NCBI GenBank assembly: GCA_044225365.1
Contig: JBGAIQ010000030.1
Span: 1 to 61,242, forward strand
Source: Planctomycetota bacterium
GTDB lineage: Bacteria; Planctomycetota; B15-G4; JADJEK01
Reading direction: 5' to 3'
Length of the DNA: 61,242 nucleotides
Program-made: the position numbers and the translations under genes
In this document: in pieces, positions 20,518 to 61,201 of the stretch
How positions within the stretch are numbered: position 1 is the first letter of the stretch
Layout of the letters: each line of letters opens with the position of its first letter
Notes under the pieces: generated by a model
What the model was told of the DNA's origin: nothing
Databases searched by the model: none
What the model saw: the letters and a program-made list of their open reading frames with translations, nothing else

Positions 20518-20889
20518 ATGAGCGAACGCGACGATCGGGCCGTGAAGCGACGCAAGGTGTTTCGCGCCATCGCGGATCCGGCGCGTCGACGAATGCTCGA
20601 TCGACTGCGCGATCACGGCGAGACCGCCGCGCTCGAACTCGGCCGCGACTTCGAGGCGAGCCAGCCGGCGCTCAGTAAGCACCTGAAGATCCTTCGGGAC
20701 GCCGGCCTCGTGCGCGTGCGACGAGACGGACGCATGCAGATGTACTCGCTGAATCCCAAGCCTCTGCTCGAAGTCGTCAGTTGGATCGAGAACTATCGCC
20801 GCTTCTGGGAGGATCGCCTCGACGCTCTCGGGCGACATCTCGACGAGGCGAAGTCGAATCGTGAAGCGAATCGCAAGGAGCGAGCCTGA
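20518..20889 (+). CDS. ArsR/SmtB-family regulator
   Basis: VFRAIADPARRRML...SQPALSKHLKILRDAGLV....GR...Y.L; FWEDRLDAL tail typical of SRPBCC-linked ArsR. Confidence 0.93.
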   Translation: MSERDDRAVKRRKVFRAIADPARRRMLDRLRDHGETAALELGRDFEASQPALSKHLKILRDAGLVRVRRDGRMQMYSLNPKPLLEVVSWIENYRRFWEDRLDALGRHLDEAKSNREANRKERA

Positions 20890-21344
20890 TGAGCGGCATC
20901 CATCTCGAACGCATCTACCCTCACCCGATCGATCGCGTCTGGGAAGCGATCGCGACGGCGCGCGGCCTGTCGGCGTGGTTGATGCCGACCGACTTCGAGC
21001 CGCGCCTCGGCCATCGCTTCCAGTTCCGCTGGAAGAAGATCCCGGGCTGGCGCGGCTACGTCGATTGCGAAGTGCTCGCAATCGAGCCGATGCGTCGAAT
21101 CGTGTTCTCGTGGGTCGGCGACGAGAAGCAGGCGCCCACGACCGTCAGTTTCCAGTTGGAGCGGGTGGGCGAGGGCACGAAGCTCGTGTTCGACCACACG
21201 GGTTTCTCGGGAATCGGCGGCTTCTTCAGCAAGCTGATGATGACGAACGGCTGGAAGAAGAAGATGCTCGACCGTCAATTGAACGCCGTGCTCACCACAC
21301 TGGCATCGCGAGGACCTGGCGCGCTCGTCGCGCTCGTCCCCTGA
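20889..21344 (+). CDS. SRPBCC/AHSA1-domain protein
   Basis: IHLERIYPHPIDRVWEAI....LSAWLMP.DFEP..G; GTKLVFDHTGF. Confidence 0.9.
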   Translation: MSGIHLERIYPHPIDRVWEAIATARGLSAWLMPTDFEPRLGHRFQFRWKKIPGWRGYVDCEVLAIEPMRRIVFSWVGDEKQAPTTVSFQLERVGEGTKLVFDHTGFSGIGGFFSKLMMTNGWKKKMLDRQLNAVLTTLASRGPGALVALVP

Positions 21345-23408: not shown

Positions 23409-23495
23409 GCCGCCGAGTACGAAGAAAATCTGCGCGAGCCGTCACACCCGGCCTCTGCGCGTCGTCTTCGTTCATGGTTCCTGATGGAGGTTCCC

Positions 23496-24077
23496 ATGTC
23501 GAGAACGGCTCGGATCGAAGGTTCGAAGGCCAAGGGTCTGATCGCGAGAATCGCGTACTTCTTCGCGCGTCGCGAACTCGGAAACGTCCCGCTGCCGATG
23601 CGGATCGCGGCGCATCACCGACCCTTGTTCACCGGAATGATGCAGATGGAATTCGCGCACCGGCGATCCGCGACTCTGTCCGCGAGGATGAAGTACTTGG
23701 TCCAGCTCCTCGTCGCGAAGCGAATCGGGTGTCCGTTCTGAATGGACATCGGCTCTGCCGTGGGCAGAGGAAAAGGACTGCGACAGGACGATCTCGATCG
23801 CATCGAGGACTATGCGACGGATCCCTCGTTCGACGATCTCGAGCGCGATTGTCTGCTCTACGCCGATCAGGTGACCGCGACGCCGGTCATCGTCGACGAG
23901 GATCTCTTCGAGCGGCTCGCGAGGCGATTCTCGCGCGAACAACTCGTCGAGCTCACGGCGACGATCACCTGGGAGAATCATCGGGCTCGGTTCAACCACG
24001 CGTTCGGTGTACCCAGCGAGGGCTACGCATCCTCGCCGCGGTTTCTCGGACATCCTGCGCTATCGTCGCGAGCATGA
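23496..24077 (+). CDS. AhpD/carboxymuconolactone-decarboxylase-family selenoprotein (CxxU; in-frame UGA at 23739-23741)
   Basis: The two track ORFs are in one frame, separated only by TGA, in LV..RIGCPF*MDIG (family CxxC position). C-terminal L..RFS.EQLVELT..I..EN.RARFN.A motif; GGAGG SD; SECIS-like hairpin downstream of the UGA. Confidence 0.85.
23753..23769 (+). promoter_or_regulatory. Bacterial SECIS-like hairpin
   Basis: CTCTGCC-GTG-GGCAGAG perfect 7-bp stem with a G-containing apical loop, starting 11 nt after the UGA. Confidence 0.72.
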
Positions 24078-24943
24078 GCACGGACGCAGCGATCGGACCT
24101 CTCGACTTCGAAGCCGAGCGGCGGCGACTCTTCCTGCATGCCTACCGGATGTTGTGCTCGGTCGCCGATGCCGAGGACGTGGTGCAGGACGCCTGGATAC
24201 GAATTCAGGGCATACCGCCGCGCGTCATCCACTCGACGCGCGCCTATCTCACGCAGGTCGTCACGTCGCTCTGTCTCGATCGGATGCGCAAGGATCGGGC
24301 GCGTCGGGAGGAGTACGTCGGGCCCTGGTTGCCCGAGCCGTGCGTCACGCGCCTCGACGAAGCTGACGACGAATCGCTCTCGATCGCCTTCCTCACCCTG
24401 CTCGATGTCCTCAAGCCGAACGAACGCGCCGTCTTCTTGCTACGCGACGTCCTCGATCTCGATTTCGCCACGATCGCGCGAGCGATCGGACGGAGCGAGG
24501 CGGCCTGTCGCCAATTGCTGCATCGTGCGCGCGAGCGCGTCGCGCTGTCGAATCGCCCTTATGAAGGTCCGCGGGCCGAGCATGGCCCGTTGATCGAGAG
24601 TTTCTTCGCTGCGATCGGAAGGGGAGACGTCCCGGCGTTGGTCGAACTCCTCGCGACGGATGTCCGGCTCGTCTCCGATGGCGGCGGCAAGGTGACTTCG
24701 TCGCGCGTCCCGATCGAAGGGAGTGCCAAGGTCGCATTGTTCCTCACGAACATCGCGAAGTTCTCGCCGCAGGGCCTCGACGTGCTCCCGGCTACGCTCA
24801 ACGCGGCGCCCGCGGTGCTGTTCCGCGTGGGCGGCAATGTGATCGCGACGTGGATCTTCGAGATCGTGGGTGGGAAGCTCACGCGACTCTACTCGCAGCT
24901 CAACCCCGACAAGCTCGCGCGTGTTGCTTCCCTCACGCAATGA
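24074..24943 (+). CDS. ECF41 (SigJ-like) sigma factor with SnoaL-like C-terminal extension
   Basis: AYRML.SVADAEDVVQDAW; REEYVGPWLPEP; SDGGGK; NPDKL; ATGA overlap with the upstream CMD gene. Confidence 0.93.
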   Translation: MSTDAAIGPLDFEAERRRLFLHAYRMLCSVADAEDVVQDAWIRIQGIPPRVIHSTRAYLTQVVTSLCLDRMRKDRARREEYVGPWLPEPCVTRLDEADDESLSIAFLTLLDVLKPNERAVFLLRDVLDLDFATIARAIGRSEAACRQLLHRARERVALSNRPYEGPRAEHGPLIESFFAAIGRGDVPALVELLATDVRLVSDGGGKVTSSRVPIEGSAKVALFLTNIAKFSPQGLDVLPATLNAAPAVLFRVGGNVIATWIFEIVGGKLTRLYSQLNPDKLARVASLTQ

Positions 24944-26327
24944 TGTCGTGCAACACCTTGCCGTGGACGTCCGTGAGTCGCCGGTCGATGCCGTTGTTGC
25001 GGAACGTCAATTTCTCGTGATCGATTCCGAGGAGGTAAAGGACGGTCGCGTGCAGGTCGTAGTTGTCCGTGGGCTTCTCCACGGCCTTGTAACCGAACTC
25101 GTCGGTCGCCCCGTACGACACGCCGCCCTTGACGCCGCCGCCGGCGATCCAGACCGTGAAGCCGAACGGATCGTGATCTCGCCCTTTTCCGCCCTGACTG
25201 CACGGCATGCGTCCGAATTCGGTGACCCACATCACGATCGTGTCGTCGAGGAGGCCACGCGAACGTAGATCGGTGAGGAGCGCCGCGGCGGGTCGATCCA
25301 TCGACAGCGCCATCGCACCGTGGTCCTTCTTCAGGTCCTCGTGGCTGTCCCAGTTGCGGCGGGGGAAACCGTTGTCCGCGCCGGAGAATAGCTGGACGAA
25401 TCGCACGCCTCGCTCGAGGAGGCGGCGAGCAACGAGGCAACTGCGCCCGAAGTCGGCCGTGGGTGGATCGTCGAGACCGTACAGCTTGCGCACGGACTCC
25501 GGCTCGTCGCCGAGATCGAGGACCTTCGGTGCGGAGAGTTGGAGCCGCGCGGCGAGTTCGTAGGACTCGATGCGCGCGTCGAGTCGGCTGTCGCCTGGGC
25601 GCTCGCTCCGGTGTTCGACGTCGAGCCGCTTCAAGAGCTCGAGCGTATCGCGCTCGTTGCCCGCACTCGCAACCGCGCCGCTGGACGGCGGCGGGAACAG
25701 GTCGGCGATCGGCGTCTTCGAGTTGGGCCGGATCATCGTTCCTTGGTGCGCCGCGGGGAGGAAACCCGCCGCCCAATTCGCGGGGCCGTTCGGCGGGAAC
25801 CCTCGTGAGTCGGGCAGCACCACGAACGACGGTAGGTCGTCGGCGATCCGACCCAGAGCGTAGGAGACCCAACTGCCCATCGACGGGAAGCCGGGGAGCA
25901 CGAACCCCGTCGCTTCGAGGAACGTCGCGGGGCCGTGGACGTTCGACTTCGAGACCATCGAGTGGAGGAACGCGATCTCGTCGACGTGCTCGCGAAGGCA
26001 GGGAACGAGATCGCTGACGTACTTGCCGCAGTCACCCGCGGGCCGGAAGGTCCACGGGCTCGCCATGCACGCGCCGGGATCGCTCTGGAACAGTTCGACC
26101 TTCTCGCCGGGATCGAAGGGCTTGCCATCGAGTTCGACGAGACGCGGTTTGAAATCGAAGGTGTCGACGTGACTCGCGGCTCCCGACATGAAGAGCTGGA
26201 CGACGCGCCGCGCCTTCGCCGGATGATGGAGGCCATCCTTCAGCCCCCGTGCATCGCGCGCGAAGAGGTCGGTCAGCGCGAGCGGCAGGAGGCCGAGGCT
26301 GTTTCGGAGCAGGCGTCGACGATTCAC
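24933..26327 (-). CDS. DUF1501-domain protein
   Basis: HHPAKARRVVQLFMSGAASHVDTFD.KP; ARRLLERGVRFVQ; WDSH; EFGR.P; GRDH; RLTDVHG. Confidence 0.95.
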   Translation of the reverse strand: MNRRRLLRNSLGLLPLALTDLFARDARGLKDGLHHPAKARRVVQLFMSGAASHVDTFDFKPRLVELDGKPFDPGEKVELFQSDPGACMASPWTFRPAGDCGKYVSDLVPCLREHVDEIAFLHSMVSKSNVHGPATFLEATGFVLPGFPSMGSWVSYALGRIADDLPSFVVLPDSRGFPPNGPANWAAGFLPAAHQGTMIRPNSKTPIADLFPPPSSGAVASAGNERDTLELLKRLDVEHRSERPGDSRLDARIESYELAARLQLSAPKVLDLGDEPESVRKLYGLDDPPTADFGRSCLVARRLLERGVRFVQLFSGADNGFPRRNWDSHEDLKKDHGAMALSMDRPAAALLTDLRSRGLLDDTIVMWVTEFGRMPCSQGGKGRDHDPFGFTVWIAGGGVKGGVSYGATDEFGYKAVEKPTDNYDLHATVLYLLGIDHEKLTFRNNGIDRRLTDVHGKVLHDIIA

Positions 26328-26385
26328 TTGGGGCCTCCACGAAGGCTGCGCGCATCCTTCAATCTACCTCGGCCCATCCGAATTC

Positions 26386-26441
26386 GGACCGCCGGGCTCC
26401 GCCCGGCATGTCCGGGGATGCCGGGCAGAACCCGGCGGTCC
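26386..26441. repeat. REP-like inverted doublet
   Basis: GGACCGCCGGGCTCCGCCCGGCAT-N8-ATGCCGGGCAGAACCCGGCGGTCC, 22/24 inverted match; each arm also forms its own hairpin. Confidence 0.7.
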
Positions 26442-26448
26442 TGGAATG

Positions 26449-29247
26449 TCAGTCGATGAACAGGAACTCATCGAGATTGACGAGCACGCGGCACGCGGCG
26501 GGGAGTCCGTGAGCGTTTGCATGCGCGACGAACGCGTCGAGTTCGGCGGGGCGGGGCTCGCGATTCAGCGCGAGTGCGAAGGCGCGTCGGATCTGGCCTG
26601 GCAGATCGTCGGGCGCGTCGTTCCTGAGCCTCCTCGCGAGGCGATCGCATTGGGTGAGGACGAACGGATCGTTCAACATCGCGAGGGCCTGCAATGCCGT
26701 GATCGTCACGTTCCGTCGCGGCGTCAGGAGCGAGGCGTCCGGGCAATCCAGACATTCCATGAACGGATCCGGAGCCGAGCGGACGAGGAAGCGGTAGATC
26801 GCGCGCCGATTCCCGGTCGGGGAGGTGCGATCGAATGGCTCGTAGTCGTAGACCGGCGAGTGATCGTCCTTGAACGCGAACTGACGATCGGACGGTCCGC
26901 CTCGGCGGAGATCGAGCGCGCCGCTGATGGACAGGAGCGCGTCATGGATCTGTTCGGCGTCGAGCCGCGCGCGGGGAGCGTGGGCGAGGAATCGGTTCTC
27001 CGCGTCCTTTTCGAGGATCAGCGGCGTGGCGAACGACGATCGCCGGTACGCCTCGCTCGTGACGATGAGGCGATGCAATTGCTTCAACGAGCCGCCGGTA
27101 TCCAGGAACCAACTCGCGAGGAAGTCGAGGAGCTCGGGATGCGTCGGCGGCGCGCCCAGGTGTCCGAAATCGGAGGGGGTGTCGACGAGGCCGCGGCCGA
27201 AATGCCAGAGCCAGACTCGGTTGACGATCGAGCGGGGCACGAGGGGATTCTTCGGGTCGACGAGCCAATTCGCGAGTGCGGCGCGGCGCGCGCCCTCGTC
27301 GCCCGACGCGAGGGCGTCGAAACGCGAGGGCAGCGCTCGCACGCAGCGCGGAGCGCCGGGGATCGCCACGTCGCGCGGGCTGTTGACGTCGCCGCGTGCG
27401 AGCACGCGGATCTCGCGGGGCGAGGGCGATGGCGTGAAGGCTCCGTTCGGCGTGAAATCCTTGGCGGCGGCGAAGACCTTGCTCGGTGGCGGCAACGCGG
27501 CGAACTCCCGATCGAGTCGGGCGAGTCGCTCGACGCGATCGATCCACCCTGCGACCGACTCGACTCCGATCGCGCCGAAGGGCGTGTCGCCGTCGGTCAG
27601 ATTCGAGAGCGACCAGCGCGGGGGAGCTTCGATCGACGCCGTCGACGTCGCGTGGGCGTGCATGGCGACGTCGCGTCGGTCGTGGATCACGACGAGTTCG
27701 CCGAGCGCGAACGCGAAGTCGCCGGTGCGCTGCCAGAGCTTCGTTGCGCGCACGCGGACGAAGCGAGCGGAACCCGTCGTTTCGATGGAGAGCGGCGAGT
27801 CGCCGGGATTCGCGAAGTCGGCACCGGTGTGATCGGAGACGATCCGCGGATTCGCGAACGACGGGTCGTCGGCGATCGCGACGTCGAATCGCACCGGGAA
27901 GCCGAAGCCGGGTCCTGGCCAACCGCCATAGACCTCGTGAGCGGGGACGAGAACGATGCGATCGATGCGAACGCTTTCGCCGAGGTCGATCGTGACTTCG
28001 CGGGTGGCGTCCGCCGTGGCGACCAGGTCGCTGTGGTAGCCGAGATGATCCGAGGGCCCAGCGTCGACGCGCTGCAGCGTCGCTCGTTCACGGACGATCG
28101 CGGCCCTTCGCGCGGCGATCTCCGGGTCGGCATCGAACTCACGATCGGCGCGTTCGACGCCCGCGAACACGGCCTGCAGCGAGTAGTAGTCGTCCTGCGT
28201 GATCGCGTCGAACTTGTGATCGTGGCAGCGTGCGCAATGCACGGTCATGCTCGCGAACGTCGACATCGTGTTCATCACCATGTCGTCGCGGTCGAGATTG
28301 CGAGTGATCGCCTTGTCGGTGGTGCCTTCGCGCAGTTCGACGTGCCCCACGAAGTCCCACGGACCGGCAGCGATGAAGCCCGTCGCGACGAGTGCCGAGG
28401 GATCGTTGGGGTAGAGGACGTCGCCCGCGAGCTGCTCCGTCACGAAGCGGGAATAGGGTTTGTCGGAGTCGAAGCTCGCGATCACGTAGTCGCGATAGGG
28501 CCAAGCGTTCGGCCGCGGTTTGTCCTTGTCGTAGCCGTGAGTCTCGCCGTAGTGGACGAGGTCGAGCCAGAAGCGCGCGAAGCGCTCACCGAAACGAGGC
28601 GAAGCGAGCAGACGATCGACGAGGCGCAGGTAGGCGTCCTGCGCGGAATCGGCGACGAACTGCGCCACCTCCTCCGGCGTCGGAGGAAGCCCGGTGAGAT
28701 CGTACGTGACGCGTCGGATCAGCGTCTTCTTGTCCGCGAGTGGGCCGGGCGTGAGCGCGAGTTCGGCGAGTCGTGCGTCCACGAACGAGTCGATCGGGTT
28801 CTTGGTGTCGCGCGGCACGGTGGGATGGACGATGGGGCGAAGCGACCAGAGATCGCATCGGCGGTCGAATTCGAGCGCAGCCGAGCGATCGACCAGCGTG
28901 CGACCCTGCGGCCAGTTCGCTCCGTCCTCGATCCAGGAGAGCAGCGTGTGGATGTCGGATTCGGGAACGGGCGGTTTGCCCTTGGGCATGCGCGGCGGGT
29001 CGTCGCCTTCCTTGCGCAGCACCACGATCAACGGGCTCGAGTCGGGTCGCGAGACGTCGAATGCGGGCTCGCCCGAACGTCCTCCGGCCATCGCATCGAT
29101 GCGAGTCGCGAGCGAGAGTCCGCCCTTCTTGTGGGTCGCGTCGTGACAGGCGATGCATCGCCCTTCGAGGATCGGCGCGACGTCGCGCTCGAAGTCGATT
29201 GGGAACGGAGCAGGAAGGCCGGCGAGGAAGAGGGCGAGCGCGATCAA
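26449..29247 (-). CDS. Planctomycete cytochrome c plus DUF1549/DUF1553 (PSCyt2/PSD1) protein with a central discoidin-like insert
   Basis: CIACH; LIRRVTYDLTGLPP; AWPYRDYVI; CARCHDHKFD; VNRVW..HFGRGLV; PTHPELLD.LA; LQAL.MLN. Confidence 0.95.
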   Translation of the reverse strand: MIALALFLAGLPAPFPIDFERDVAPILEGRCIACHDATHKKGGLSLATRIDAMAGGRSGEPAFDVSRPDSSPLIVVLRKEGDDPPRMPKGKPPVPESDIHTLLSWIEDGANWPQGRTLVDRSAALEFDRRCDLWSLRPIVHPTVPRDTKNPIDSFVDARLAELALTPGPLADKKTLIRRVTYDLTGLPPTPEEVAQFVADSAQDAYLRLVDRLLASPRFGERFARFWLDLVHYGETHGYDKDKPRPNAWPYRDYVIASFDSDKPYSRFVTEQLAGDVLYPNDPSALVATGFIAAGPWDFVGHVELREGTTDKAITRNLDRDDMVMNTMSTFASMTVHCARCHDHKFDAITQDDYYSLQAVFAGVERADREFDADPEIAARRAAIVRERATLQRVDAGPSDHLGYHSDLVATADATREVTIDLGESVRIDRIVLVPAHEVYGGWPGPGFGFPVRFDVAIADDPSFANPRIVSDHTGADFANPGDSPLSIETTGSARFVRVRATKLWQRTGDFAFALGELVVIHDRRDVAMHAHATSTASIEAPPRWSLSNLTDGDTPFGAIGVESVAGWIDRVERLARLDREFAALPPPSKVFAAAKDFTPNGAFTPSPSPREIRVLARGDVNSPRDVAIPGAPRCVRALPSRFDALASGDEGARRAALANWLVDPKNPLVPRSIVNRVWLWHFGRGLVDTPSDFGHLGAPPTHPELLDFLASWFLDTGGSLKQLHRLIVTSEAYRRSSFATPLILEKDAENRFLAHAPRARLDAEQIHDALLSISGALDLRRGGPSDRQFAFKDDHSPVYDYEPFDRTSPTGNRRAIYRFLVRSAPDPFMECLDCPDASLLTPRRNVTITALQALAMLNDPFVLTQCDRLARRLRNDAPDDLPGQIRRAFALALNREPRPAELDAFVAHANAHGLPAACRVLVNLDEFLFID

Positions 29248-40900: not shown

Positions 40901-41297
40901 GCGATTCTTCGCTCGCGACGAAAGAAGCCGGCCGCGGCGTGCACCGCGGGATCGATGGGCTACACTGCGTACACGACACCCGAGCCGGCGACGAATCGTA
41001 GAGGTTCGCGGCTTGCCGATTCCGCGATGAAGGGCGTGGACCCCAGCGTTCCGCCGCCGGACTTCGGGCGAGTGCTCAGGATTTCGCTGCGGGAGCGACG
41101 GTCTCCTGCCGATCTCATGGGTAGGGACGGGCGGCGCTGACGCCGGACGTTTCCTCTTTGGCAGAACGACTCGATCTTGGTGTGGTGCCAGGCCCGCTCT
41201 TTCTCGCCTGGTGACGCGCCTGACCGCGCGGCTTTCGATTCGTCCCCGCGCGGCCGTTCGGCTCGACGAACCCTCGTTCCATCGAGGGAGGTCTCGA

Positions 41298-42356
41298 ATG
41301 CTGCACGTTACGCTTTCGGTCAAACACGGGATCCGCGACGAGAACCTCGAACGACTGTTCGAGCGCATACGGGAGAAGGTAGTGGAGCGACTGAACGGCG
41401 AGTGCCTCGATCAGGTCTCGCTCCACGCCGAAGTCGAACTGAGCTCGCATCGTCGCGAGGGAATGGCGCGGCTCACCCTCGACCTTCCTGGTGGCGCACT
41501 ACACGCCGACGCACGCGGCCGCAGTCATCTCCAGGCGCTGCGAATGGCGAACGACGCGCTGCTCTCCGAGTTGAAGACGCGGCGTCGAAAGGACCGTGAG
41601 CGAGAGCGCGACGCGACGACCATACGGCCCGTGAATGGGCATTCGGCCGACATCGGGGTGGGCGATTCCACCGCCAAGATCGAGCCCGATCTCGCACAGC
41701 GCGTTGCGGAGACGATGCCGGAGCTCCACTCGTTCGTGCGACGCGAGATCGCGCTCCACGCGGAGGATGGACTCACCGCGTCACCTCCGATCGAATCCGA
41801 CGATGTCGTCGACGAAGCGCTGCTGCAAGCACTCGCGACCCACGCGAATTGCCCCGACGACGTGCCCTTCGATCGCTACGTCTTCAGTTGCGCGTTCGAC
41901 GTCATCCTCGCCGAGATCGAGCGCCGGAGGAACGAACGGCAAGCGGACTCGCTCGAGAGCGAGATCTCGACGAATCGGTCGTTCGCGGCATTCGACACGC
42001 TCTGCGTCCTCGATTCGCTCCAGGAGACCGATGCGGCGTCGGACGACGCGATGGATGGCGCGATGGGAGATTCCCCGGCAATGCGGATTCCCCGAACGCT
42101 CGGCGAAGCTCTCGCCGACGACCGCGCTCGCGCCGGCGACGTGGAACTCGTCGGCCGGGATCTGCGCTACGCGGTCATGAGCGCGATTCGTCACCTTCCG
42201 CTCGATGAACGTCGCGCCCTGTCGCTCGTCGCGTTCCAGGGTCTGCCCGTTCCCGAGGCGGGACGGCGAATGCAGCGGAGTCCGCTCGAAGTCACGACGT
42301 TGATGGAGCAGGCGCGCATCGACGTGCGTCGCGAACTCCTGGCGAAGGGGTACTGA
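41298..42356 (+). CDS. Fusion of an HPF/RaiA(S30AE)-like domain with sigma70/ECF region 2- and 4-like domains
   Basis: GGGAGG SD; N-terminal RLTLDLPGGALHADA.......ALRMA.DAL..ELK; central L.SFVRRE....DDVVDEALL.A; C-terminal AI..LP.DERRAL.LV..QGL...EA...M.RS. Confidence 0.72.
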   Translation: MLHVTLSVKHGIRDENLERLFERIREKVVERLNGECLDQVSLHAEVELSSHRREGMARLTLDLPGGALHADARGRSHLQALRMANDALLSELKTRRRKDRERERDATTIRPVNGHSADIGVGDSTAKIEPDLAQRVAETMPELHSFVRREIALHAEDGLTASPPIESDDVVDEALLQALATHANCPDDVPFDRYVFSCAFDVILAEIERRRNERQADSLESEISTNRSFAAFDTLCVLDSLQETDAASDDAMDGAMGDSPAMRIPRTLGEALADDRARAGDVELVGRDLRYAVMSAIRHLPLDERRALSLVAFQGLPVPEAGRRMQRSPLEVTTLMEQARIDVRRELLAKGY

Positions 42357-52718: not shown

Positions 52719-55700
52719 ATGTCTCACGCGAGCCCATTCTCGCCGACCGCGTTGTTCACCACCCTCGTCGTACTCGCCATCGAAGGCGGCGTGGCCGGAC
52801 TGATTCCCGTCGCCCATGCGCGCACCGATGCTTCGCAGGTCGACAGCACGTTGCTGTTCAACCAGAAGTTCTTCGGACTCATCGCGAACGCAGGCGACGA
52901 GGACGTCGTGCAGTTCTCGGAGGTGAAGGGCAGCAAGCTCACGCTCACGATGCAGCGCGACGGCGCGAATTCGCTCGTGCCCAACGTCGATCTGCTGGAC
53001 TCGAACTTCCAGCCGATCAACACTCTCGGATTCGAGACGAATCAGGCCTCGAAGGCGGAGATCAAGAACTTCGTCGTTCCGGCGAACGGCATCTACTACG
53101 CGAGAATGACGAGCGCGAACGGGTTCACGGGGACCTACAAATTCACACTGAAGGGCAAGCCGCCGAAGGATCCGAAGATTCCACCCGGTTCGATCGGCTC
53201 GACGGGCGAGGTCGACACCCTGCTGTTCTCCGCTCGGGGCGGCAGCAAGCTGTCCGGTACGCTCTCGCGCACCAGCGGGAACCTGCAGCCGCTCGTCATC
53301 GAACTCGTGTCGCCGACCGGCGTCCTGGTTCCGATCGGCGGCGTCGGCAAGGTCAAGACCAACGCCGCGGGTACGGTCGTGACGCTCTCCAACATCGGAC
53401 TGCCGTCGCTCGGTGATTACCAATTGCGGATCACGGGGCAGGGCGGCTCGACGGGTGGCTACGCGGTCGATTTCAAGATCCAGCCGGCGAAGCCCGCAAC
53501 CGATTCGATCTACGAGGACGAGTTTCCGAATCCGGGCGTCGACGACTCACCGACGATCACGCTGAAGGAGATCTACTTCGGTCGCGGACTGCACAGCGAG
53601 GACGGCAAGTCGATGCAGGTCGTCAGCCCGTTCACGACGGTGCTGACCGATCCGGTCTCGGATCTCCCCGTGAATGGCTCCCTCACGCCGATCTTCCCCG
53701 GCATCGACGTGAAGACCCCGGTCTCGTTCGACCTCGACACCTTCTACGCGCCGATGATCGTGCCGCGGAACGCCGTGCTCCTCCTTCGATTCAACCGGGC
53801 GCCGAGCATCGACTCGCTACGGCTCGATTCCGACGGACTGCTCACGACCGACAGTCCGCTCAAGGTCACGATCTCGGGACAACTGACGCCGTTCGCGGTG
53901 ATCGTCAAAGGCAACGACCTCCTCCTCGATCCGGTCTTCGGCGACAATGTCGGAATGCCCGCGAGCCCGCTCGCGGTCGATGGTGCCGGCAACCCGATCG
54001 CGTCGGTGACCGGGGCGGGTCTCATCGCGATCGAGGCGGGCCCGAACGGACTGAAGGCGAGCGACGGCGGCGTGTACAAGCCGCGCGCCGATCTCCTCGC
54101 ATCGCCCGATTCCGGTGGGCAGCCGGTGGGCTTCAACCCCGGCAATCAGGTTCTCGACTTCTTCAAACAGTCGAGCGTGGGCGGGGCATCGAAATCCTAT
54201 TCGGGCTTCCTCCCCGATGAAGCTGCACCGCGCATCGTCCGCGAGAAGAAGAAGACCGGAAACTACACGCCGAACTTCCTCAATCCGACGCTCGGCGACA
54301 TCCAGACGTCGACGGTGTTCTCGATCGTGACGAACTACGCACTCGACGTGTCGCAGAACGGCGGCAAGGGCGAGTACGCGGGCGGTGTGCTTCGATTGCG
54401 TCCGCAAGGACCGAATCGCGAGGAGCACGTCATTCTCTCGCACACGGTCCTTGCGCTCCAGGGCGGAGTCTTCCGCAACGAATTCGTGCTCGCGAGCAAG
54501 ATCCAGATCCCTGCGAAGGCTCCTGCGGGCAGCGAGCCCGGCGACTCCTACGAGATCGTCCGCGCCGAATACTACGAGCCGGATCCGGAGCACCCGATCG
54601 ATCCCAAGACGTTCGACCCGAACGATCCCGACCTCGGCGAGAACGTGAAGATCGAGAACTTCGTCGAGGCAGTCGACCGCAACGGGAACCTCGAGGACAT
54701 CTCGCAGGCGCTCGATCCGAAGTCGACCCTGACGATGCGTTTCTCCGAGCCGATGCTGCGCGAGTCGTTCAGCGCCTACGATTCGTACTTCGTCACCGAT
54801 GATCCCGCCGCCTCGAACCCGGGTCTCGCTTACATCGGACGTGTGGTCTCGAGCGATCGCGGCAAGGCGATGACCTTCCAGCCCTATCGCGAGATCCAGT
54901 TCGGGCCGAATGCCGGCAGCATCGAACAACTCGGCTTCGGGCCGAACGCCTCCGCGCTACGTCTCCACCTCTTCACCGTTCCGTCGAGCGCGATCCTGAT
55001 CAGCCTGCTCGGGGAGCAGGGCTTCGCGGACTTCGTGAGCGAGGGACATCGCGGGGCGACCGATCTCGGCGGCCAGCCTCTCGCCTTCCCGCTAGGCTTC
55101 GTGTCCCAGCAGCAGCCATTCCTCGACTATGCGATCCCATTCACGACGGTCGCGGATCCAACGATTCCCGACACCGGCGCGATCGTGCATCGCTTCCGCG
55201 GTCAGCCGTCGACGGGCTCGGACGTGAATGGCGACACGGGGGTCAGCTACAACGACATGCCGACGTCGATCTGCGGTCCCCTCGGCAATCTCTACGGCCC
55301 GCGTATCGCGGACGTGAACCTGTTCACGAACGGATTCTTGTCCGGCGCTCCCGTCGCCTTCTTCCAGAAGGTGCATGACGATTTCAATCTCCCGCCGAAT
55401 GGACAGATGAACCCCTTCGCGGGCGGAGCCCCGCAACCGATCGGCGGCAACACCGTGCTCGGCGGCGGAAAACTGCAGCATGTCTATCGCAGCGTCGACT
55501 GCTCGCCGGACTTCGAATCGCTCGCCGGCACCATCCTCGATCTCTATCGCGTCGACTACGCACCGGTCTCGGGGCTCGTCCAGAACACGGTGATCCCCGA
55601 CGTCTCGATCCATGCCGGTCACACAGCGACCGTACCCGATACGAGCCAGACCACCGGGATCCCGGACTTCGCGGCCTCGGGTCTGAATGGGGGTGGCACG

Positions 55701-56813
55701 CCCTCGCAGTGGACGTTCGGCGGCAACTACACGACGCTCGGCGACCCCAACACGCCGCTCGTCGAGGGTAGCTACAACGCGACGCTGAAGGAGACGGGGG
55801 AGGCGCTCACCCGGCAGCTCTGCTACGGGACGCCCAAGCCCGACACGCTCGCCGATTTCTACGACGGCAAGCCGGTCGTGATCGACGCGAAGAATCTCTA
55901 CAACCCGGCGGCGTCGGCGTCGCGGACCTATCATCCGTTGCCGGTCGGCGGGTTCGACAATCCGTTCCCGTACAACAACGGCGCGCTCGATACGTTGACG
56001 TACCCGAACGGCGTGACGTTCGGACAGCCGTTCAAGAACCGCAGTGAGAGCCTGCTGCTCGAGTATCGCGTGCGGGTCGTCGACAGCGCGAATCCGCCGG
56101 GTACGCAGAACTCGTTCACCTTCGCGGTGGGCATCCTCAGTTCCGCGCTGCCGCGTTTCCGCATCTACACCGTCGGGCAGGGCTGCACCTCCTGCTCCAA
56201 CGGCGTCAACTGTGCGGTCTCGTACGGTCCGCCCATGACGGGTTTGCCGAACGGCGGCGGTCCGCCGCTCGATCCCGACCTCATGGTGAACGCGATCGGT
56301 CCCGACGTATCGTTCCCCGGGCTCGCCTGCATTTGCTATGCGCCACCGATCAATCCGATCCCTTGCGCTCCTGGATTCAACAGCACCGCGATCACGAGTC
56401 CCGACGCGGCGCAGATCGCGCAAGGACAGGGACAATACAATTCGGCCAACAACTGGGGCGACAACGCGCGCTACTTCATGGTCTTCAACTATGTGAAGCG
56501 CGAGTCGTTGATCCGCTCGCCCTTCGTGCGGGTGCAGCCCGTCGCCGTGACCGATCCCATCTATCTCGAGCCGATCTTCGATCCGCCCCTCAGCCAGCTC
56601 CCGGTCGGAACGAAGTTCGACATCCAGTTCCGGGCCTCGAGCAACGGTCAAGGCACGTTTGACGCGACGAGTTACGTCGCTCCCGATCAGATCGGGACCT
56701 TGAATGGGGCCGCGCGGCCGTTCTTGCAGTTCCAGGCATTGATCGACGGCGATACCAGTACCCAACTGGTACCCGCCTTCGATTCGATCGTCATTCCGTT
56801 CCGAAAGAACTGA
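52719..56813 (+). CDS. Large secreted beta-rich hypothetical protein (1364 aa), paralog 1
   Basis: Signal peptide AHA-R; two N-terminal PPC-like domains; Ig-like LRFNR.P and MRFSEPM motifs; Cys cluster near the C-terminus. Confidence 0.88.
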   Translation: MSHASPFSPTALFTTLVVLAIEGGVAGLIPVAHARTDASQVDSTLLFNQKFFGLIANAGDEDVVQFSEVKGSKLTLTMQRDGANSLVPNVDLLDSNFQPINTLGFETNQASKAEIKNFVVPANGIYYARMTSANGFTGTYKFTLKGKPPKDPKIPPGSIGSTGEVDTLLFSARGGSKLSGTLSRTSGNLQPLVIELVSPTGVLVPIGGVGKVKTNAAGTVVTLSNIGLPSLGDYQLRITGQGGSTGGYAVDFKIQPAKPATDSIYEDEFPNPGVDDSPTITLKEIYFGRGLHSEDGKSMQVVSPFTTVLTDPVSDLPVNGSLTPIFPGIDVKTPVSFDLDTFYAPMIVPRNAVLLLRFNRAPSIDSLRLDSDGLLTTDSPLKVTISGQLTPFAVIVKGNDLLLDPVFGDNVGMPASPLAVDGAGNPIASVTGAGLIAIEAGPNGLKASDGGVYKPRADLLASPDSGGQPVGFNPGNQVLDFFKQSSVGGASKSYSGFLPDEAAPRIVREKKKTGNYTPNFLNPTLGDIQTSTVFSIVTNYALDVSQNGGKGEYAGGVLRLRPQGPNREEHVILSHTVLALQGGVFRNEFVLASKIQIPAKAPAGSEPGDSYEIVRAEYYEPDPEHPIDPKTFDPNDPDLGENVKIENFVEAVDRNGNLEDISQALDPKSTLTMRFSEPMLRESFSAYDSYFVTDDPAASNPGLAYIGRVVSSDRGKAMTFQPYREIQFGPNAGSIEQLGFGPNASALRLHLFTVPSSAILISLLGEQGFADFVSEGHRGATDLGGQPLAFPLGFVSQQQPFLDYAIPFTTVADPTIPDTGAIVHRFRGQPSTGSDVNGDTGVSYNDMPTSICGPLGNLYGPRIADVNLFTNGFLSGAPVAFFQKVHDDFNLPPNGQMNPFAGGAPQPIGGNTVLGGGKLQHVYRSVDCSPDFESLAGTILDLYRVDYAPVSGLVQNTVIPDVSIHAGHTATVPDTSQTTGIPDFAASGLNGGGTPSQWTFGGNYTTLGDPNTPLVEGSYNATLKETGEALTRQLCYGTPKPDTLADFYDGKPVVIDAKNLYNPAASASRTYHPLPVGGFDNPFPYNNGALDTLTYPNGVTFGQPFKNRSESLLLEYRVRVVDSANPPGTQNSFTFAVGILSSALPRFRIYTVGQGCTSCSNGVNCAVSYGPPMTGLPNGGGPPLDPDLMVNAIGPDVSFPGLACICYAPPINPIPCAPGFNSTAITSPDAAQIAQGQGQYNSANNWGDNARYFMVFNYVKRESLIRSPFVRVQPVAVTDPIYLEPIFDPPLSQLPVGTKFDIQFRASSNGQGTFDATSYVAPDQIGTLNGAARPFLQFQALIDGDTSTQLVPAFDSIVIPFRKN

Positions 56814-57106: not shown

Positions 57107-60100
57107 ATGTCCATCGCGAGCAAGCTCTCGCCCGCAGCGCTCCTCATCCGCGGTTCGGTCGTCGCCCTCGCGCTTGGAGCGTTCGACTCCGCCGCGATCT
57201 CGCTCGCGCGCACCGATGCCTCGCAAGTCGACGCGACGCTGTTGTTCAATCAGAAGTTCCTCGGCCTCATCTCGACGGCCGCCGACGAAGACGTCGTGCA
57301 GTTCACCGAGGTCGTCGGTTCGAAGCTCACGGCCACGATGCAGCGGGATGGTTCGAACAACCTGAAGCCGAACATCGAGCTGCTCGACTCCAACTTCCAA
57401 GTCGTCAGCACGGTGGGGTTCAAGACGAACGGCCCGGACAAGTCGGAGATCAAGAACTTCGTGATCCCGGCGAACGGGACCTACTACTTGAGCATGACGA
57501 GCGGCAATGGTTTCACGGGCACCTACAAGCTCGCTCTCAAGGGCAAGCCCGTGAAGGTCCCGAACATTCCCGCGGGCTCGATCGCAGCGGCGGGGGAGGT
57601 CGACACCCTCGGCTTCAGCGCGCGCGCGGGCAGCAAGCTCGCGGGCACGATCTCGCGCACGAGCGGCAATCTCACTCCGCTCGTCATCGAACTCGTCTCG
57701 CCGACGGGCGTCCTCGTTCCTGTTACCGGCAACAATCAGATCAAGACCAACGGCGCCGGCACGATCGTGACGCTGTCGAACATCGGCCTTCCCGCGCTCG
57801 GCGACTATCAGTTGCGCATCACGGGACAAGGTGGTTCGACGGGCGGTTACAACGCGGATCTCAAGATCACGCCGCCCAAGGTCGCGACCGATTCGATCTT
57901 CGAAGGCGAGCATCCGAACCCGCAGGTCGACAATTCGCCGACCGTGACCCTGAAAGAAATCTACTTCGGCCGCGGACTGCGCGGTGACGACGGCTCGTCG
58001 ATGAAGGTCGTGAGTCCGTTCACGACGGTGCTGACCGATCCGGTGTCCGATCTCCCGGTGAAGGGATCGCTGCAGTCGATCTTCGCGGGCTTCGACGTCA
58101 ACACGCCGGTGTCGTTCGATCTCGACACCTTCTATTCGCCGATGATCGTGCCACGAAACGCGGTACTGCTCCTGCGATTCAACCGCCCGCTCAGCAAGGA
58201 CTCGCTGCGGCTCGATGCGAGCGACCTGCTCACGACCGACAGTCCGCTGAAGGTCACCATCGCGGGTCAGGAGACTCCGTTCGAGGCGATTCTCCAGGGA
58301 ACCGATCTGCTGTTGAATCCGGTGTACGGCGACAACGTGGGCATGCCGGCGAGTCCCGTGGTCGTCGACGGTGTCGGGAACCCGGTCGCCTCGTCGACGG
58401 GATCGGCAACGATCTCGATCATGACGGGCGTGAACGGATTGAAGGCGGTCGACGGCGGGATCTACAAGCCGCGAACCGATCTCCTCGGGTCGCCGGATTC
58501 CGGCGGTCAGCCGATCGGCTTCAATCCCGGCAACCAGGTCCTCGACTTCTTCAAGCAGTCGAGCGTGGGCGGCGCGACCAAGACGTACACCGGCTTCCTC
58601 CCCGACGAAGCGGCGCCGCGTATCGTGCGTGAGAAGAAGGTCATCGGCAACTACACGCCGAACTTCCTCGATCCGTCGCTCGGCGACTCCCAGGGCACGA
58701 CGAGCTTCTCGATCGTGACGAACTACCAACTCGACGTGACTCAGAACGGGAACAAGGGTGAGTACGCGGGTGGCGTTCTCCGGTTGCGACCGAAGGGGCC
58801 GAACCGCGAAGAGCACGTCATCACGCAGCACACGATGACGAACCTGGGCGGAGGTCTCTTCCGCCACGACATCTCGCTCGCGAGCAAGCTCCTGATCCCG
58901 GCCAAGGCACCGACGCAGAGCGATCCGGGCGATGCCTATGAACTCGTTCGCGCCGAGTACTACGAGCCCGATCCGGAGCATCCGATCGATCCGCTCCTAT
59001 TCAACCCGAACGATCCCGACCTCGGCGAGAACACCAAGATCGAGAACTTCGTGGAAGCGATCGACCGCAATGGCGTGACGCAGGATCTCACGCAGGCGAT
59101 CGACCCGAAATCGACGCTCACGATGCGATTCTCGGAGCCGATGCTGCTCGAGTCGTTCCGTCCCTACGAGTCGTACTTCGTTTCGGACGACCCGCCGCCG
59201 TCGAACTTCGGCCTGAACCATCTCGGTCGAGCGGTCTCGAGTGAACGCGGCAAGGCGATCACCTTCCAGCCCTATCGCGAGATCCAGTTCGGCGCGAACG
59301 CGGGCACGTTCGAGAACGTCGGCTTCGGTCCCAATGCGTCGGCGCTCCAGATCCACCTGATCACGGTACCGTCGAGCTCGGTGCTCATCAGTCTGCTCGG
59401 TCAGCAAGGCTACGCGGATTTCGTCCGCGAAGGCCATCGGGGCGCGACGGACCTCGGCGGTCAGCCGCTCGCTTTCCCGCTCGGTATGGTGTCACCGAGC
59501 CAGCCTTTCCTCGACTATGCGATCTCGTTCACGACCAACGCCGATCCCTCGATCGACGAGACGGGCGCGATCGTTCATCGATTCCTCGGCCAGCCCCTCA
59601 CGGGTTCGGATGACAATGGCGACACGGGCGTCTCCTACAAGGACATGCCGGAGTCGTTGTGTGGGCCGCTCGGCAATCTCTACGGCCCGCGGATCGCGGA
59701 CCTCAACCTGTTCACCAACGGGTTCCTCTCTGGAGCGCCGGTATCCTTCTTCCAGAAGGTCCACGACGACTTCAATCTGCCTCCGCAGGGTCAGATGAAC
59801 GCCTTCCCGTTCGGCCTCGGTACGCCGATCGGTGGCTTCGCGGTGCTCGGCGGCAGCAAGCTGCAGCACGTCTACCGCTGCGTCGACTGCTCTCCGGACT
59901 TCGAGTCGCTCGCCGGCACCAAGCTCGACCTCTATCGCGTCGACTTCGCGCCGCTCACGGGAATCGTCCAGAACACGATCCTCCCCGACGTCTCGATCCA
60001 CGCGGGCCACACGGCCTCGGTGCCGGACACCGATCAGGACTCCGGCATCCCGAACTTCCCGAACTCGGGTCTCAACGGAGCGACGACGGCGACGCAGTGG

Positions 60101-61201
60101 CCGTTCGGCGGCAACTTCACGACGCTCGGCGATCCGAACTCGCCGCTCGTCCGTGGTAGCTACAACGCCACGCTCGCCGCGACCGGCGAGACACTGAATC
60201 GCCAATCGGTGTACGGCTCGTTGAAGCCGGGAGCGGTTGCCGACCTCTACCAGGGCAAGCCGGTGCCGATCGACGCCAAGAACCTCTACAATCCCGCGGG
60301 CTCGATCAGCCGTTTCTATCACCCGCTCCCCGTCGGTGGTTTCGACAACCCGTTCCCGTACAACAACGGCGCGCTCGACGTGCTCACCTATCCCGCCGGT
60401 GTCACGTTCGGAACCGTGTTCAAGAATCGCAACGAGAGCCTCGTGCTCGAGTATCGAGTTCGCGTCGTCGATCCCGCGAATCCCCCGGGCCAGACCAACT
60501 CGTTCACGTTCGCGGTCGGAATCCTCAGCTCGGCTCTCCCGCGGTTCCGCATCTTCACGTTCGGCGCCGGCTGCTCGTCGTGCTGGAACGGCTCCAACTG
60601 TACTGCGATCAATGGTCCGCCGATGACCGGCCTCGCGAATGGTGGCGGTCCGCCGCTCGATCCCGACAAGGTCGTGAACGCGATCGGTCCGGACGTGTCG
60701 TACCCGGGCCTCGCGTGTCTCTGCTACTCGCCGCCGACGAATTCGATTCCCTGCAACCAAGGGTTCACGAATCAGTCGATCACGAATCCGAACGCGGCGC
60801 AGATCGCGCAGGGCCAAGGCGCGTACAACGGCAACAACAACTTCGGCGACAACTCGCGCTACTTCATGGTCTTCAACTATGTGAAGCGGGAGTCCCTCGT
60901 GCGCTCGCCGTTCGTTCGGGTGCAGCCGACTTCCGTCGTCGACCCGACCTATCTCGAACCGATCTTCACGCCGCCGCTCTCGCAGTTGCCGGTCGGTACG
61001 AAGTTCGACGTGAAGTTCCGTGCGTCGACGAACGGCCAGGGCACGTTCGACGCGACGAACTATGTGACGCCCGATCAGATCGCCGTGCTGAACGGCGCCG
61101 GTCGTCCGTTCCTCCAGTTCGAGGCCGTCGTCGACGGCAACACCAGCACGCAGATCGTTCCTGCGTTCGATGAGATCGTGATTCCGTTCCGTAAGAACTG
61201 A
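57107..61201 (+). CDS. Large secreted beta-rich hypothetical protein (1364 aa), paralog 2
   Basis: Colinear with 52719-56813; signal peptide SLA-R; same C-terminus ..IVIPFRKN. Confidence 0.88.
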   Translation: MSIASKLSPAALLIRGSVVALALGAFDSAAISLARTDASQVDATLLFNQKFLGLISTAADEDVVQFTEVVGSKLTATMQRDGSNNLKPNIELLDSNFQVVSTVGFKTNGPDKSEIKNFVIPANGTYYLSMTSGNGFTGTYKLALKGKPVKVPNIPAGSIAAAGEVDTLGFSARAGSKLAGTISRTSGNLTPLVIELVSPTGVLVPVTGNNQIKTNGAGTIVTLSNIGLPALGDYQLRITGQGGSTGGYNADLKITPPKVATDSIFEGEHPNPQVDNSPTVTLKEIYFGRGLRGDDGSSMKVVSPFTTVLTDPVSDLPVKGSLQSIFAGFDVNTPVSFDLDTFYSPMIVPRNAVLLLRFNRPLSKDSLRLDASDLLTTDSPLKVTIAGQETPFEAILQGTDLLLNPVYGDNVGMPASPVVVDGVGNPVASSTGSATISIMTGVNGLKAVDGGIYKPRTDLLGSPDSGGQPIGFNPGNQVLDFFKQSSVGGATKTYTGFLPDEAAPRIVREKKVIGNYTPNFLDPSLGDSQGTTSFSIVTNYQLDVTQNGNKGEYAGGVLRLRPKGPNREEHVITQHTMTNLGGGLFRHDISLASKLLIPAKAPTQSDPGDAYELVRAEYYEPDPEHPIDPLLFNPNDPDLGENTKIENFVEAIDRNGVTQDLTQAIDPKSTLTMRFSEPMLLESFRPYESYFVSDDPPPSNFGLNHLGRAVSSERGKAITFQPYREIQFGANAGTFENVGFGPNASALQIHLITVPSSSVLISLLGQQGYADFVREGHRGATDLGGQPLAFPLGMVSPSQPFLDYAISFTTNADPSIDETGAIVHRFLGQPLTGSDDNGDTGVSYKDMPESLCGPLGNLYGPRIADLNLFTNGFLSGAPVSFFQKVHDDFNLPPQGQMNAFPFGLGTPIGGFAVLGGSKLQHVYRCVDCSPDFESLAGTKLDLYRVDFAPLTGIVQNTILPDVSIHAGHTASVPDTDQDSGIPNFPNSGLNGATTATQWPFGGNFTTLGDPNSPLVRGSYNATLAATGETLNRQSVYGSLKPGAVADLYQGKPVPIDAKNLYNPAGSISRFYHPLPVGGFDNPFPYNNGALDVLTYPAGVTFGTVFKNRNESLVLEYRVRVVDPANPPGQTNSFTFAVGILSSALPRFRIFTFGAGCSSCWNGSNCTAINGPPMTGLANGGGPPLDPDKVVNAIGPDVSYPGLACLCYSPPTNSIPCNQGFTNQSITNPNAAQIAQGQGAYNGNNNFGDNSRYFMVFNYVKRESLVRSPFVRVQPTSVVDPTYLEPIFTPPLSQLPVGTKFDVKFRASTNGQGTFDATNYVTPDQIAVLNGAGRPFLQFEAVVDGNTSTQIVPAFDEIVIPFRKN

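Follow-up and report, generated by a model that had tools for sequence, protein, structure and literature searches.

A probable CxxU selenoprotein gene of the CMD family in a two-gene operon with an ECF41 sigma factor, and a possible selenium checkpoint on the sigma factor

The locus described here lies on a contig of a Planctomycetota bacterium (NCBI GenBank assembly GCA_044225365.1, contig JBGAIQ010000030.1, positions 1 to 61,242 of the forward strand); the whole stretch of 61,242 nucleotides is referred to below as the window. Two neighbouring genes on its plus strand are our subject—a gene for a protein of the CMD family, which the list of open reading frames (ORFs) splits at a single in-frame TGA, and a gene for a sigma factor of group ECF41. 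A first-pass annotation, made from the letters alone, had read the TGA as selenocysteine (Sec) standing at the second Cys of a CxxC motif, with a 7-bp hairpin carrying a G in its loop from 11 nt downstream, a full-length stop that overlaps the sigma start codon as ATGA, and an ECF41 sigma factor next to the CMD gene. Each of these elements was found, and they are placed as follows, together with the signals that lie upstream.

23440..23466, plus strand: ECF41-type promoter-like motif CGTCACA-N16-CGTC, with one mismatch to TGTCACA-n16-CGTC; it ends 30 nt before the ATG of the CMD gene.
23486..23490, plus strand: Shine-Dalgarno (SD) sequence GGAGG, 5 nt before the ATG of the CMD gene; duplex with the anti-SD sequence, -10.0 kcal/mol.
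23496..24077, plus strand: predicted selenoprotein gene of the CMD family (the AhpD-like fold family), 193 codons plus stop, with Sec at codon 82; called from the Pfam CMD domain, homologues and G+C content at third codon positions (GC3).
23730..23741, plus strand: predicted redox motif Cys79-Pro-Phe-Sec82 (TGT CCG TTC TGA), aligning with GCxFC in homologues and GCAYC in PA0269.
23739..23741, plus strand: in-frame UGA, probably read as selenocysteine; the aligned codon is TGA in 69 of the best 80 loci.
23753..23769, plus strand: hairpin CTCTGCC-GTG-GGCAGAG resembling a selenocysteine insertion sequence (SECIS), 17 nt, 7 bp, loop GUG, 11 nt after the last base of the TGA; called from conservation, covariation and codon use.
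24074..24077, plus strand: ATGA overlap of the selenoprotein stop (TGA, 24075-24077) and the sigma start (ATG, 24074-24076), with no SD sequence (-2.2 kcal/mol).
24074..24943, plus strand: gene of 289 codons for an ECF41 (SigJ-type) sigma factor that carries a C-terminal extension; called from NCBIfam, Pfam and the WLPEP motif.

Around the TGA the plus strand reads CGA ATC GGG TGT CCG TTC TGA ATG GAC ATC GGC TCT GCC GTG GGC AGA GGA, giving the protein context RIGCPF-TGA-MDIGSAVGR. The ORF 23484/23496..23741 stops at the TGA at 23739-23741, and the same frame is open from the ATG at 23742 to the TGA at 24075-24077. We place the start of the gene at 23496 rather than at the in-frame ATG at 23484 because the GGAGG at 23486-23490 favours the former. 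GC3 has a value of 0.79 in the part ahead of the TGA and of 0.72 in the part behind it, and a single Pfam CMD domain (PF02627, residues 44-124) runs across the TGA; its score exceeds the cut-off by a small margin (24.4 against 23 bits).

The best NCBIfam match of the full-length product is NF053654, the "YciW-related (seleno)protein" model, which is itself annotated as a possible selenoprotein. The match covers nearly the whole profile (residues 3-176 against profile positions 3-175 of 179, E = 6e-31); the score, however, is 107.5 bits against a curated cut-off of 310, and all 14 relatives tested also fall under that cut-off, at 82-144 bits. By these comparisons the subfamily is a sister group to NF053654 and not a member of it. 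A search of 5.8 billion proteins returned 53 matches, which fall into a long class (36 proteins of 154-220 residues, 38-47% identical, mostly called AhpD-family alkylhydroperoxidase by their sources) and a short class (17 proteins of 106-142 residues). In an alignment of 33 of these matches the relatives with Cys are single proteins of 185-220 residues, and 16 short C-terminal forms, seen as protein sequences and not as DNA, start 1-3 residues past the TGA column—which is what would be expected if gene callers stop at the TGA. One record in the protein search holds a C-terminal half that is 93% identical to that of the window protein. The subfamily carries the signature GCPFU-x-DIGSAVGR ... 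ENxRARFNHAFG.

A profile built from the alignment matches solved proteins of the CMD family with E values of 1e-17 to 1e-14, and AhpD (6k40) with only 1.5e-5. In these alignments the CxxC of PA0269 (2ijc, 2o4d), 7xw1, Atu0492 (2gmy), the debrominase Bmp8 (6ohi) and AhpD lies opposite the CxxU of the subfamily, with GCAYCVNMH facing GC-x-F-C-x-D-I-G. The solved proteins all have Cys at both positions and a His four residues after the second one; unlike them, the subfamily has a Gly there (DIG), and the window protein reads U-M-D-I-G where PA0269 has its His. The CxxCxxxH of AhpD proper is thus absent, and since the CxxC/U pair is kept but the His is replaced by Gly, we regard the protein as a member of the CMD family and not as an AhpD orthologue. 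Of the double label AhpD/CMD that the gene had received at first, the CMD half stands on the Pfam match and the AhpD half is withdrawn; the assignment to the CMD family is, by sequence comparison, the one we use here. Longer forms of the family also occur: P0069-P0103 have 330-372 residues, several of them with an N-terminal part of about 150-200 residues that has no Pfam match, and P0156 (842 residues) is a GntR-aminotransferase-CMD fusion.

The evidence that the TGA is a sense codon comes mainly from relatives. We scanned one genome per species for 185,579 species, obtained 565 confirmed relatives and retained the best 80 (L001-L080), reading the codon opposite residue 82 from the tblastn alignment at each locus. 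That codon is TGA in 69, TGC in 10 and TCG in one of these best 80 of 565 loci. The TGA forms come from at least seven phyla—mostly from Acidobacteriota, and also from Myxococcota, Entotheonella (Tectimicrobiota), Planctomycetota, Binatota, Verrucomicrobiota and one Cellvibrionaceae genome—and seven of the ten TGC forms are from Actinomycetota. The UGA is hence conserved in orthologues of other organisms and lies opposite Cys in homologues, for it aligns with the second Cys of GCxFC in the full-length homologues and of CxxC in the solved CMD proteins. Retention of TGA at a catalytic Cys position across phyla argues that it is neither a sequencing error nor the lesion of a pseudogene. The first-pass annotation had staked its reading beforehand on the conservation of UGA and hairpin among relatives, and both are kept. 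It fared less well with the ATG directly after the UGA, which it had offered as a possible re-initiation bypass: at that position most relatives have ATC or ATT and some have CTG or GTG (the six that are linked to a sigma gene have CTG, ATC or ATT), and a designed bypass is therefore unlikely. No other gene in the window was found to be split by a TGA in a redox context.

The hairpin at 23753-23769 is encoded by Gly-Ser-Ala-Val-Gly-Arg codons, and its behaviour was followed in a gap-free alignment of the 51 nt from the TGA onward in 70 sequences (the window and the 69 TGA loci). The 7-bp helix occupies the same columns in all 70; pairing is seen in 91.6% of its cells, and falls to 38-50% if the partners are shifted by 1-3 columns. 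The closing base pair (15:31), formed between the synonymous third base of a Gly codon and the first base of the codon following Arg, is CG in 28 sequences, GC in 15 and UA in 12, and in L050 the stem has been swapped in a compensatory manner for a different complementary sequence. Neither the covariation score nor the percentage paired was matched by any of 500 shuffles. RNAalifold, with no structure supplied, returned the same helix with 6 bp and a 5-nt loop, and conservation is 90% or higher at G22 and U23 of the loop. The stem-loop lies 3' of the UGA, carries a G in its apical loop and shows covariation. In bacteria the SECIS is required 11 nt from the UGA, which is the spacing seen here. 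A 17-nt upper stem-loop has been described as the minimal bacterial SECIS (PMC11431864).

The helix also separates the loci that have TGA from those that do not: at least six of the seven pairs form in 63 of the 70 TGA sequences (seven of seven in the window) versus two of the 11 non-TGA relatives. The two exceptions, L074:5241-5291 (CPCS, with TCG) and L076:3621-3671 (TGC), form six of seven pairs and look like recent conversions of Sec to Ser and Cys, judging from their sequences. Codon use in the stem divides along the same line. The Ser codon is TCT in 67 of 70 TGA forms, a codon that makes up 2.6% of the Ser codons in the genes of the window, and TCG in eight of 11 non-TGA forms; the Arg codon is AGA in 58 and AGG in 11 of the 70 TGA forms, and CGC or CGG in eight of the 11 others, with AGA accounting for 2.1% of the Arg codons in the genes of the window. 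This choice of rare codons is, we think, what argues most clearly for selection on the RNA of the stem. With the UGA and the hairpin taken together, the gene shows every mark of a bacterial selenoprotein gene that can be read from sequence.

The gene that follows encodes a sigma factor whose product scores 282.5 against NCBIfam NF007214 (SigJ), above the cut-off of 271, and 291 against TIGR02957, below the cut-off of 323. Pfam places Sigma70_r2 at residues 12-75 and r4_2 at 105-155; about 130 residues follow r4_2, with a weak SnoaL_2 match at 175-229, and the linker motif WLPEP is present (GPWLPEPCV, P0003). This motif is characteristic of group ECF41 (Wecke et al. 2012, PMC3426412). Sigma-2 and sigma-4 regions with a C-terminal extension, the WLPEP motif, and a neighbouring gene of the kind usual for the group, with the promoter motif in front of it at one mismatch, together bear out the call of an ECF41 factor beside the CMD gene.

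Opposite the CMD and sigma genes, two minus-strand ORFs (23472-24053 and 24440-24940) are preferred by a GC3 heuristic. We rejected them as high-GC artefacts because it is the plus strand that carries the homology; they illustrate how a split selenoprotein gene gets mis-called.

ECF41 genes adjoin a gene for a carboxymuconolactone decarboxylase, an oxidoreductase or an epimerase (COE), and the commonest linked order is COE and then ECF, at 107 of 373 ECF41 loci (29%); in that order the COE gene usually has the promoter TGTCACA-n16-CGTC (97 of 107), and the COE gene or operon is described as the only detectable ECF41 target (PMC3426412). The window has the COE-then-ECF order, and the same picture is seen in its relatives. 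Seven of the best 80 loci have a sigma homologue immediately downstream of the CMD gene, with TGA in L001, L002, L003, L020, L072 and L073 and TGC in L075. The promoter motif stands upstream of the CMD gene in all seven (exact in six, with one mismatch in L002) and in one of the other 73, where L048 has a copy with one mismatch; the strict motif occurs 11 times over all loci on both strands (1.38 Mb). The layout as a whole—ECF41 promoter, strong SD sequence, Sec-CMD gene and an SD-less sigma gene within 23 nt—is also found in Entotheonella, Nannocystaceae, Bryobacterales and Cellvibrionaceae. Because gene order and motif recur in relatives, the operon of a Sec-CMD gene and an ECF41 gene is a recurring arrangement, though one found in a minority of loci, and not an accident of the window genome. 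Neither a sigma-70-type promoter nor a terminator was found between the two window genes, and we infer that they are co-transcribed.

Three observations from the other loci touch on this linkage. The copy at L048:4916 reads TGTCACA-N16-CATC and lies upstream of a Sec-CMD gene with no sigma gene within its 5-kb flanks; the regulator of that gene may be an ECF41 factor encoded at a distance. In L021:9671-10492 and L064:9651-10334, a weaker ECF41-like sigma homologue (31-34% identity) lies on the minus strand, about 4-5 kb downstream of the Sec-CMD gene and on the opposite strand to it. We also looked for shared neighbours other than the sigma gene as a functional clue; none is common to more than seven loci, those that are shared look like lineage synteny, and the idea was dropped.

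Taken together, the two genes very probably form an operon of a selenoprotein gene and an ECF41 sigma gene, a reading that we hold with high confidence, and the CMD gene itself is most likely intact and encodes one CxxU polypeptide rather than two ORF fragments. How the sigma gene is translated is a separate matter, which we approached through the strength of SD sequences, taken as the energy of the duplex that a generic anti-SD sequence forms with the 20 nt ahead of each start codon. The start of the CMD gene is strong in the window (-10.0 kcal/mol) and in the four Sec relatives measured (-5.6 to -9.8), whereas the sigma start is weak in the window (-2.2) and in six of six Sec relatives (+1.2 to -3.6, values that depend on sigma start codons picked by the analyst); random positions in the window have a median of -3.2 kcal/mol. 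The two genes overlap by the ATGA in the window and by 14 nt in L072, and are separated by gaps of 8, 8, 21, 21 and 23 nt in the others. A strong SD sequence on the first cistron with none on an abutting second is the usual picture of translational coupling or termination-reinitiation, and lends such coupling indirect support. Since the sigma gene has no SD sequence of its own and overlaps the upstream stop, its product is probably made mainly by ribosomes that have read through the selenoprotein gene; sigma output would then depend on Sec insertion, which is the most speculative step in our argument.

A scheme that joins these elements would run as follows. The ECF41 factor would transcribe the operon from the motif at 23440-23466, as the motif and the published system suggest; the sigma factor would thereby recognise the promoter of its own operon, probably forming a positive feedback loop as in other COE-ECF41 pairs. 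Ribosomes would load at the GGAGG and translate the CMD gene into a 193-residue thiol/selenol oxidoreductase. At UGA82, SelB and its Sec-tRNA, docked on the hairpin (23753-23769), would insert selenocysteine and so create a Cys79-x-x-Sec82 redox centre, and ribosomes that reach the ATGA would restart on the sigma gene. Where Sec insertion fails, most ribosomes would drop off the mRNA with 335 nt still to go to the sigma start, and both sigma output and feedback would drop. In its strongest form this amounts to a selenium checkpoint—the ECF41 factor would be made only by ribosomes that have passed the Sec codon, and the self-activating loop could not amplify if either selenium or the Sec machinery were missing. 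We put this forward tentatively, as something rather less probable than its absence.

Several observations count against one part or another of what we propose. The hairpin of the window is not significant when folded alone (51 nt, -13 kcal/mol, z = -1.22, with 21 of 200 shuffles equal or better), and an Rfam scan of the window, at gathering thresholds and at E up to 10, found no family that matches it, only a tRNA and a chance miRNA match; it is the comparative data, and not the hairpin alone, that take the selenoprotein call well beyond chance. None of selA, selB, selD and tRNA-Sec lies within the 61-kb window, and loci L001-L060 contain no tRNA genes; we infer that the organism has Sec machinery. 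In a quick tree the window protein groups weakly with L002, Entotheonella and L004 (SH-aLRT 82) and sits on a long branch (1.11). Its C-terminus (24030-24074) and those of its closest database relatives, P0004 and P0006, end in ...SSPRFLGHPALS, and these three proteins are without the near-invariant Cys and Pro (G-A-x-C-x-L-P, CxLP) of almost all other relatives; the Cys of CxLP could be a third redox-active residue that this clade has lost. The promoter motif is not enriched in the window, where two copies with at most one mismatch compare with 1.05 expected and 32 of 100 shuffles contain at least two. Of the 65 Sec loci whose downstream sequence extends for 900 nt or more, 59 have no sigma gene in it, so the use of Sec is a trait of the CMD subfamily and not of the sigma link. 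As for coupling, five of the six Sec relatives have a gap instead of an overlap, and the one Cys-type operon seen, that of L075, is laid out alike, with an SD sequence of moderate strength (-5.9 kcal/mol), which makes the layout independent of Sec.

The reading that competes most closely keeps the selenoprotein and the operon and lets the sigma factor initiate independently, on no SD sequence or a non-canonical one, with no selenium gate; we give it an even chance. Gaps of 8-23 nt, as in those five relatives, permit a start of its own, and weak or absent SD sequences are common, about a third of the gene starts in the window lying at or above -3.3 kcal/mol. ECF41 factors have moreover been described as controlled through their own C-terminal extension (PMC3426412). 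Yet in the window and in all six Sec relatives the sigma start is SD-less, whereas a strong SD sequence precedes the CMD gene of the same transcripts, and the window has the ATGA overlap and no internal promoter-like site that we could find.

The remaining alternatives deny the selenoprotein, and all are improbable. That the gene is a pseudogene, or its TGA a sequencing error from TGC by a C-to-A change, can be entertained because TGA is one base from TGC and the window shows no Sec machinery; it is nevertheless the least credible of the three, for the TGA recurs at the same codon in 69 of the best 80 loci from many phyla, the half downstream of it is open with a coding-type GC3 (0.72), the hairpin is intact at seven of seven pairs, the rare codons are shared with relatives, and a nearly identical C-terminal half exists in another record. 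Hardly more plausible is a pair of small genes, in which the UGA would end a protein of 81-85 residues and the adjacent AUG start one of 111 residues. UGA and AUG do adjoin in the window, and public protein sets hold many C-terminal forms of 106-142 residues; but one CMD domain spans the junction, the Cys relatives are undivided, no start codon is conserved after the TGA, and no SD sequence precedes 23742. A slightly better case, still a poor one, can be made for a UGA read by a standard near-cognate tRNA (for Trp or Cys) in an organism without Sec machinery. A hairpin conserved at a fixed spacing, with covariation and rare codons, and mostly missing in the Cys relatives, is the signature of SelB-dependent recoding and not of leaky read-through.

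Both halves of the system have precedents. The E. coli operons fdnGHI and fdoGHI have a selenoprotein gene first and further cistrons behind the UGA-containing gene; those downstream genes encode enzyme subunits and not a regulator of the operon, unlike the arrangement in the window. CMD-domain or AhpD-like selenoproteins with CxxU have been in the literature since 2005 (Zhang and Gladyshev; PMC1088965, PMC2398784, PMC13188914), and the window protein resembles them in its PF02627 domain, in Sec at the second position and in a SECIS within the coding sequence with a G in the apical loop; the passages of those papers that treat these proteins mention no link to a sigma factor, unlike the window. 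Among the ECF41-COE pairs of Wecke et al. (PMC3426412) the gene order is the same, whereas the window differs from the pairs described there in having a selenoprotein as its COE member and a -35 element of CGTCACA; "selenoprotein" and "selenocysteine" have no occurrence in the text of that paper. In two recent selenoproteome papers the terms "sigma" and "sigma factor" are likewise absent, and among open-access papers and bioRxiv preprints we found none on this topic that brings together a sigma factor and a selenoprotein. CxxU CMD selenoproteins and the ECF41-COE module are thus each already known, and a paper that joins the two was not found in those sources.

This CMD subfamily appears to consist mostly of selenoproteins, chiefly from Acidobacteriota, going by the best 80 loci. 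Because the relatives fall under the cut-off of the only related curated model (14 of 14 tested), annotation pipelines will split their genes, and the selenoproteomes of soil bacteria are probably undercounted. In several lineages the single target of an ECF41 factor would be a selenol/thiol oxidoreductase, which speaks for a redox chemistry exacting enough for Sec to be selected. If the coupling is true, synthesis of a regulator would depend on the recoding of a stop codon, which would be a new tie of gene regulation to a trace element.

The surroundings of the operon offer some further observations. A minus-strand DUF1501 gene runs towards the sigma gene and shares 11 nt with the 3' end of the latter, and a PSCyt1/PSCyt2/PSD1 (DUF1549/DUF1553) gene lies upstream of it on the same strand, both within 24933-29247. 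On the plus strand at 20518-21344, the stop of an ArsR/SmtB-type metalloregulator gene touches the start of an AHSA1/SRPBCC-domain gene. At 41211-42356 (plus strand), the C-terminal half of a 381-residue ORF weakly matches an ECF sigma model, below its cut-off (TIGR02937, 32.4 against 42.9 bits). Near the end of the window, two consecutive plus-strand ORFs of 1364 residues each (52719-56813 and 57107-61201) have no NCBIfam match and may be tandem paralogues.

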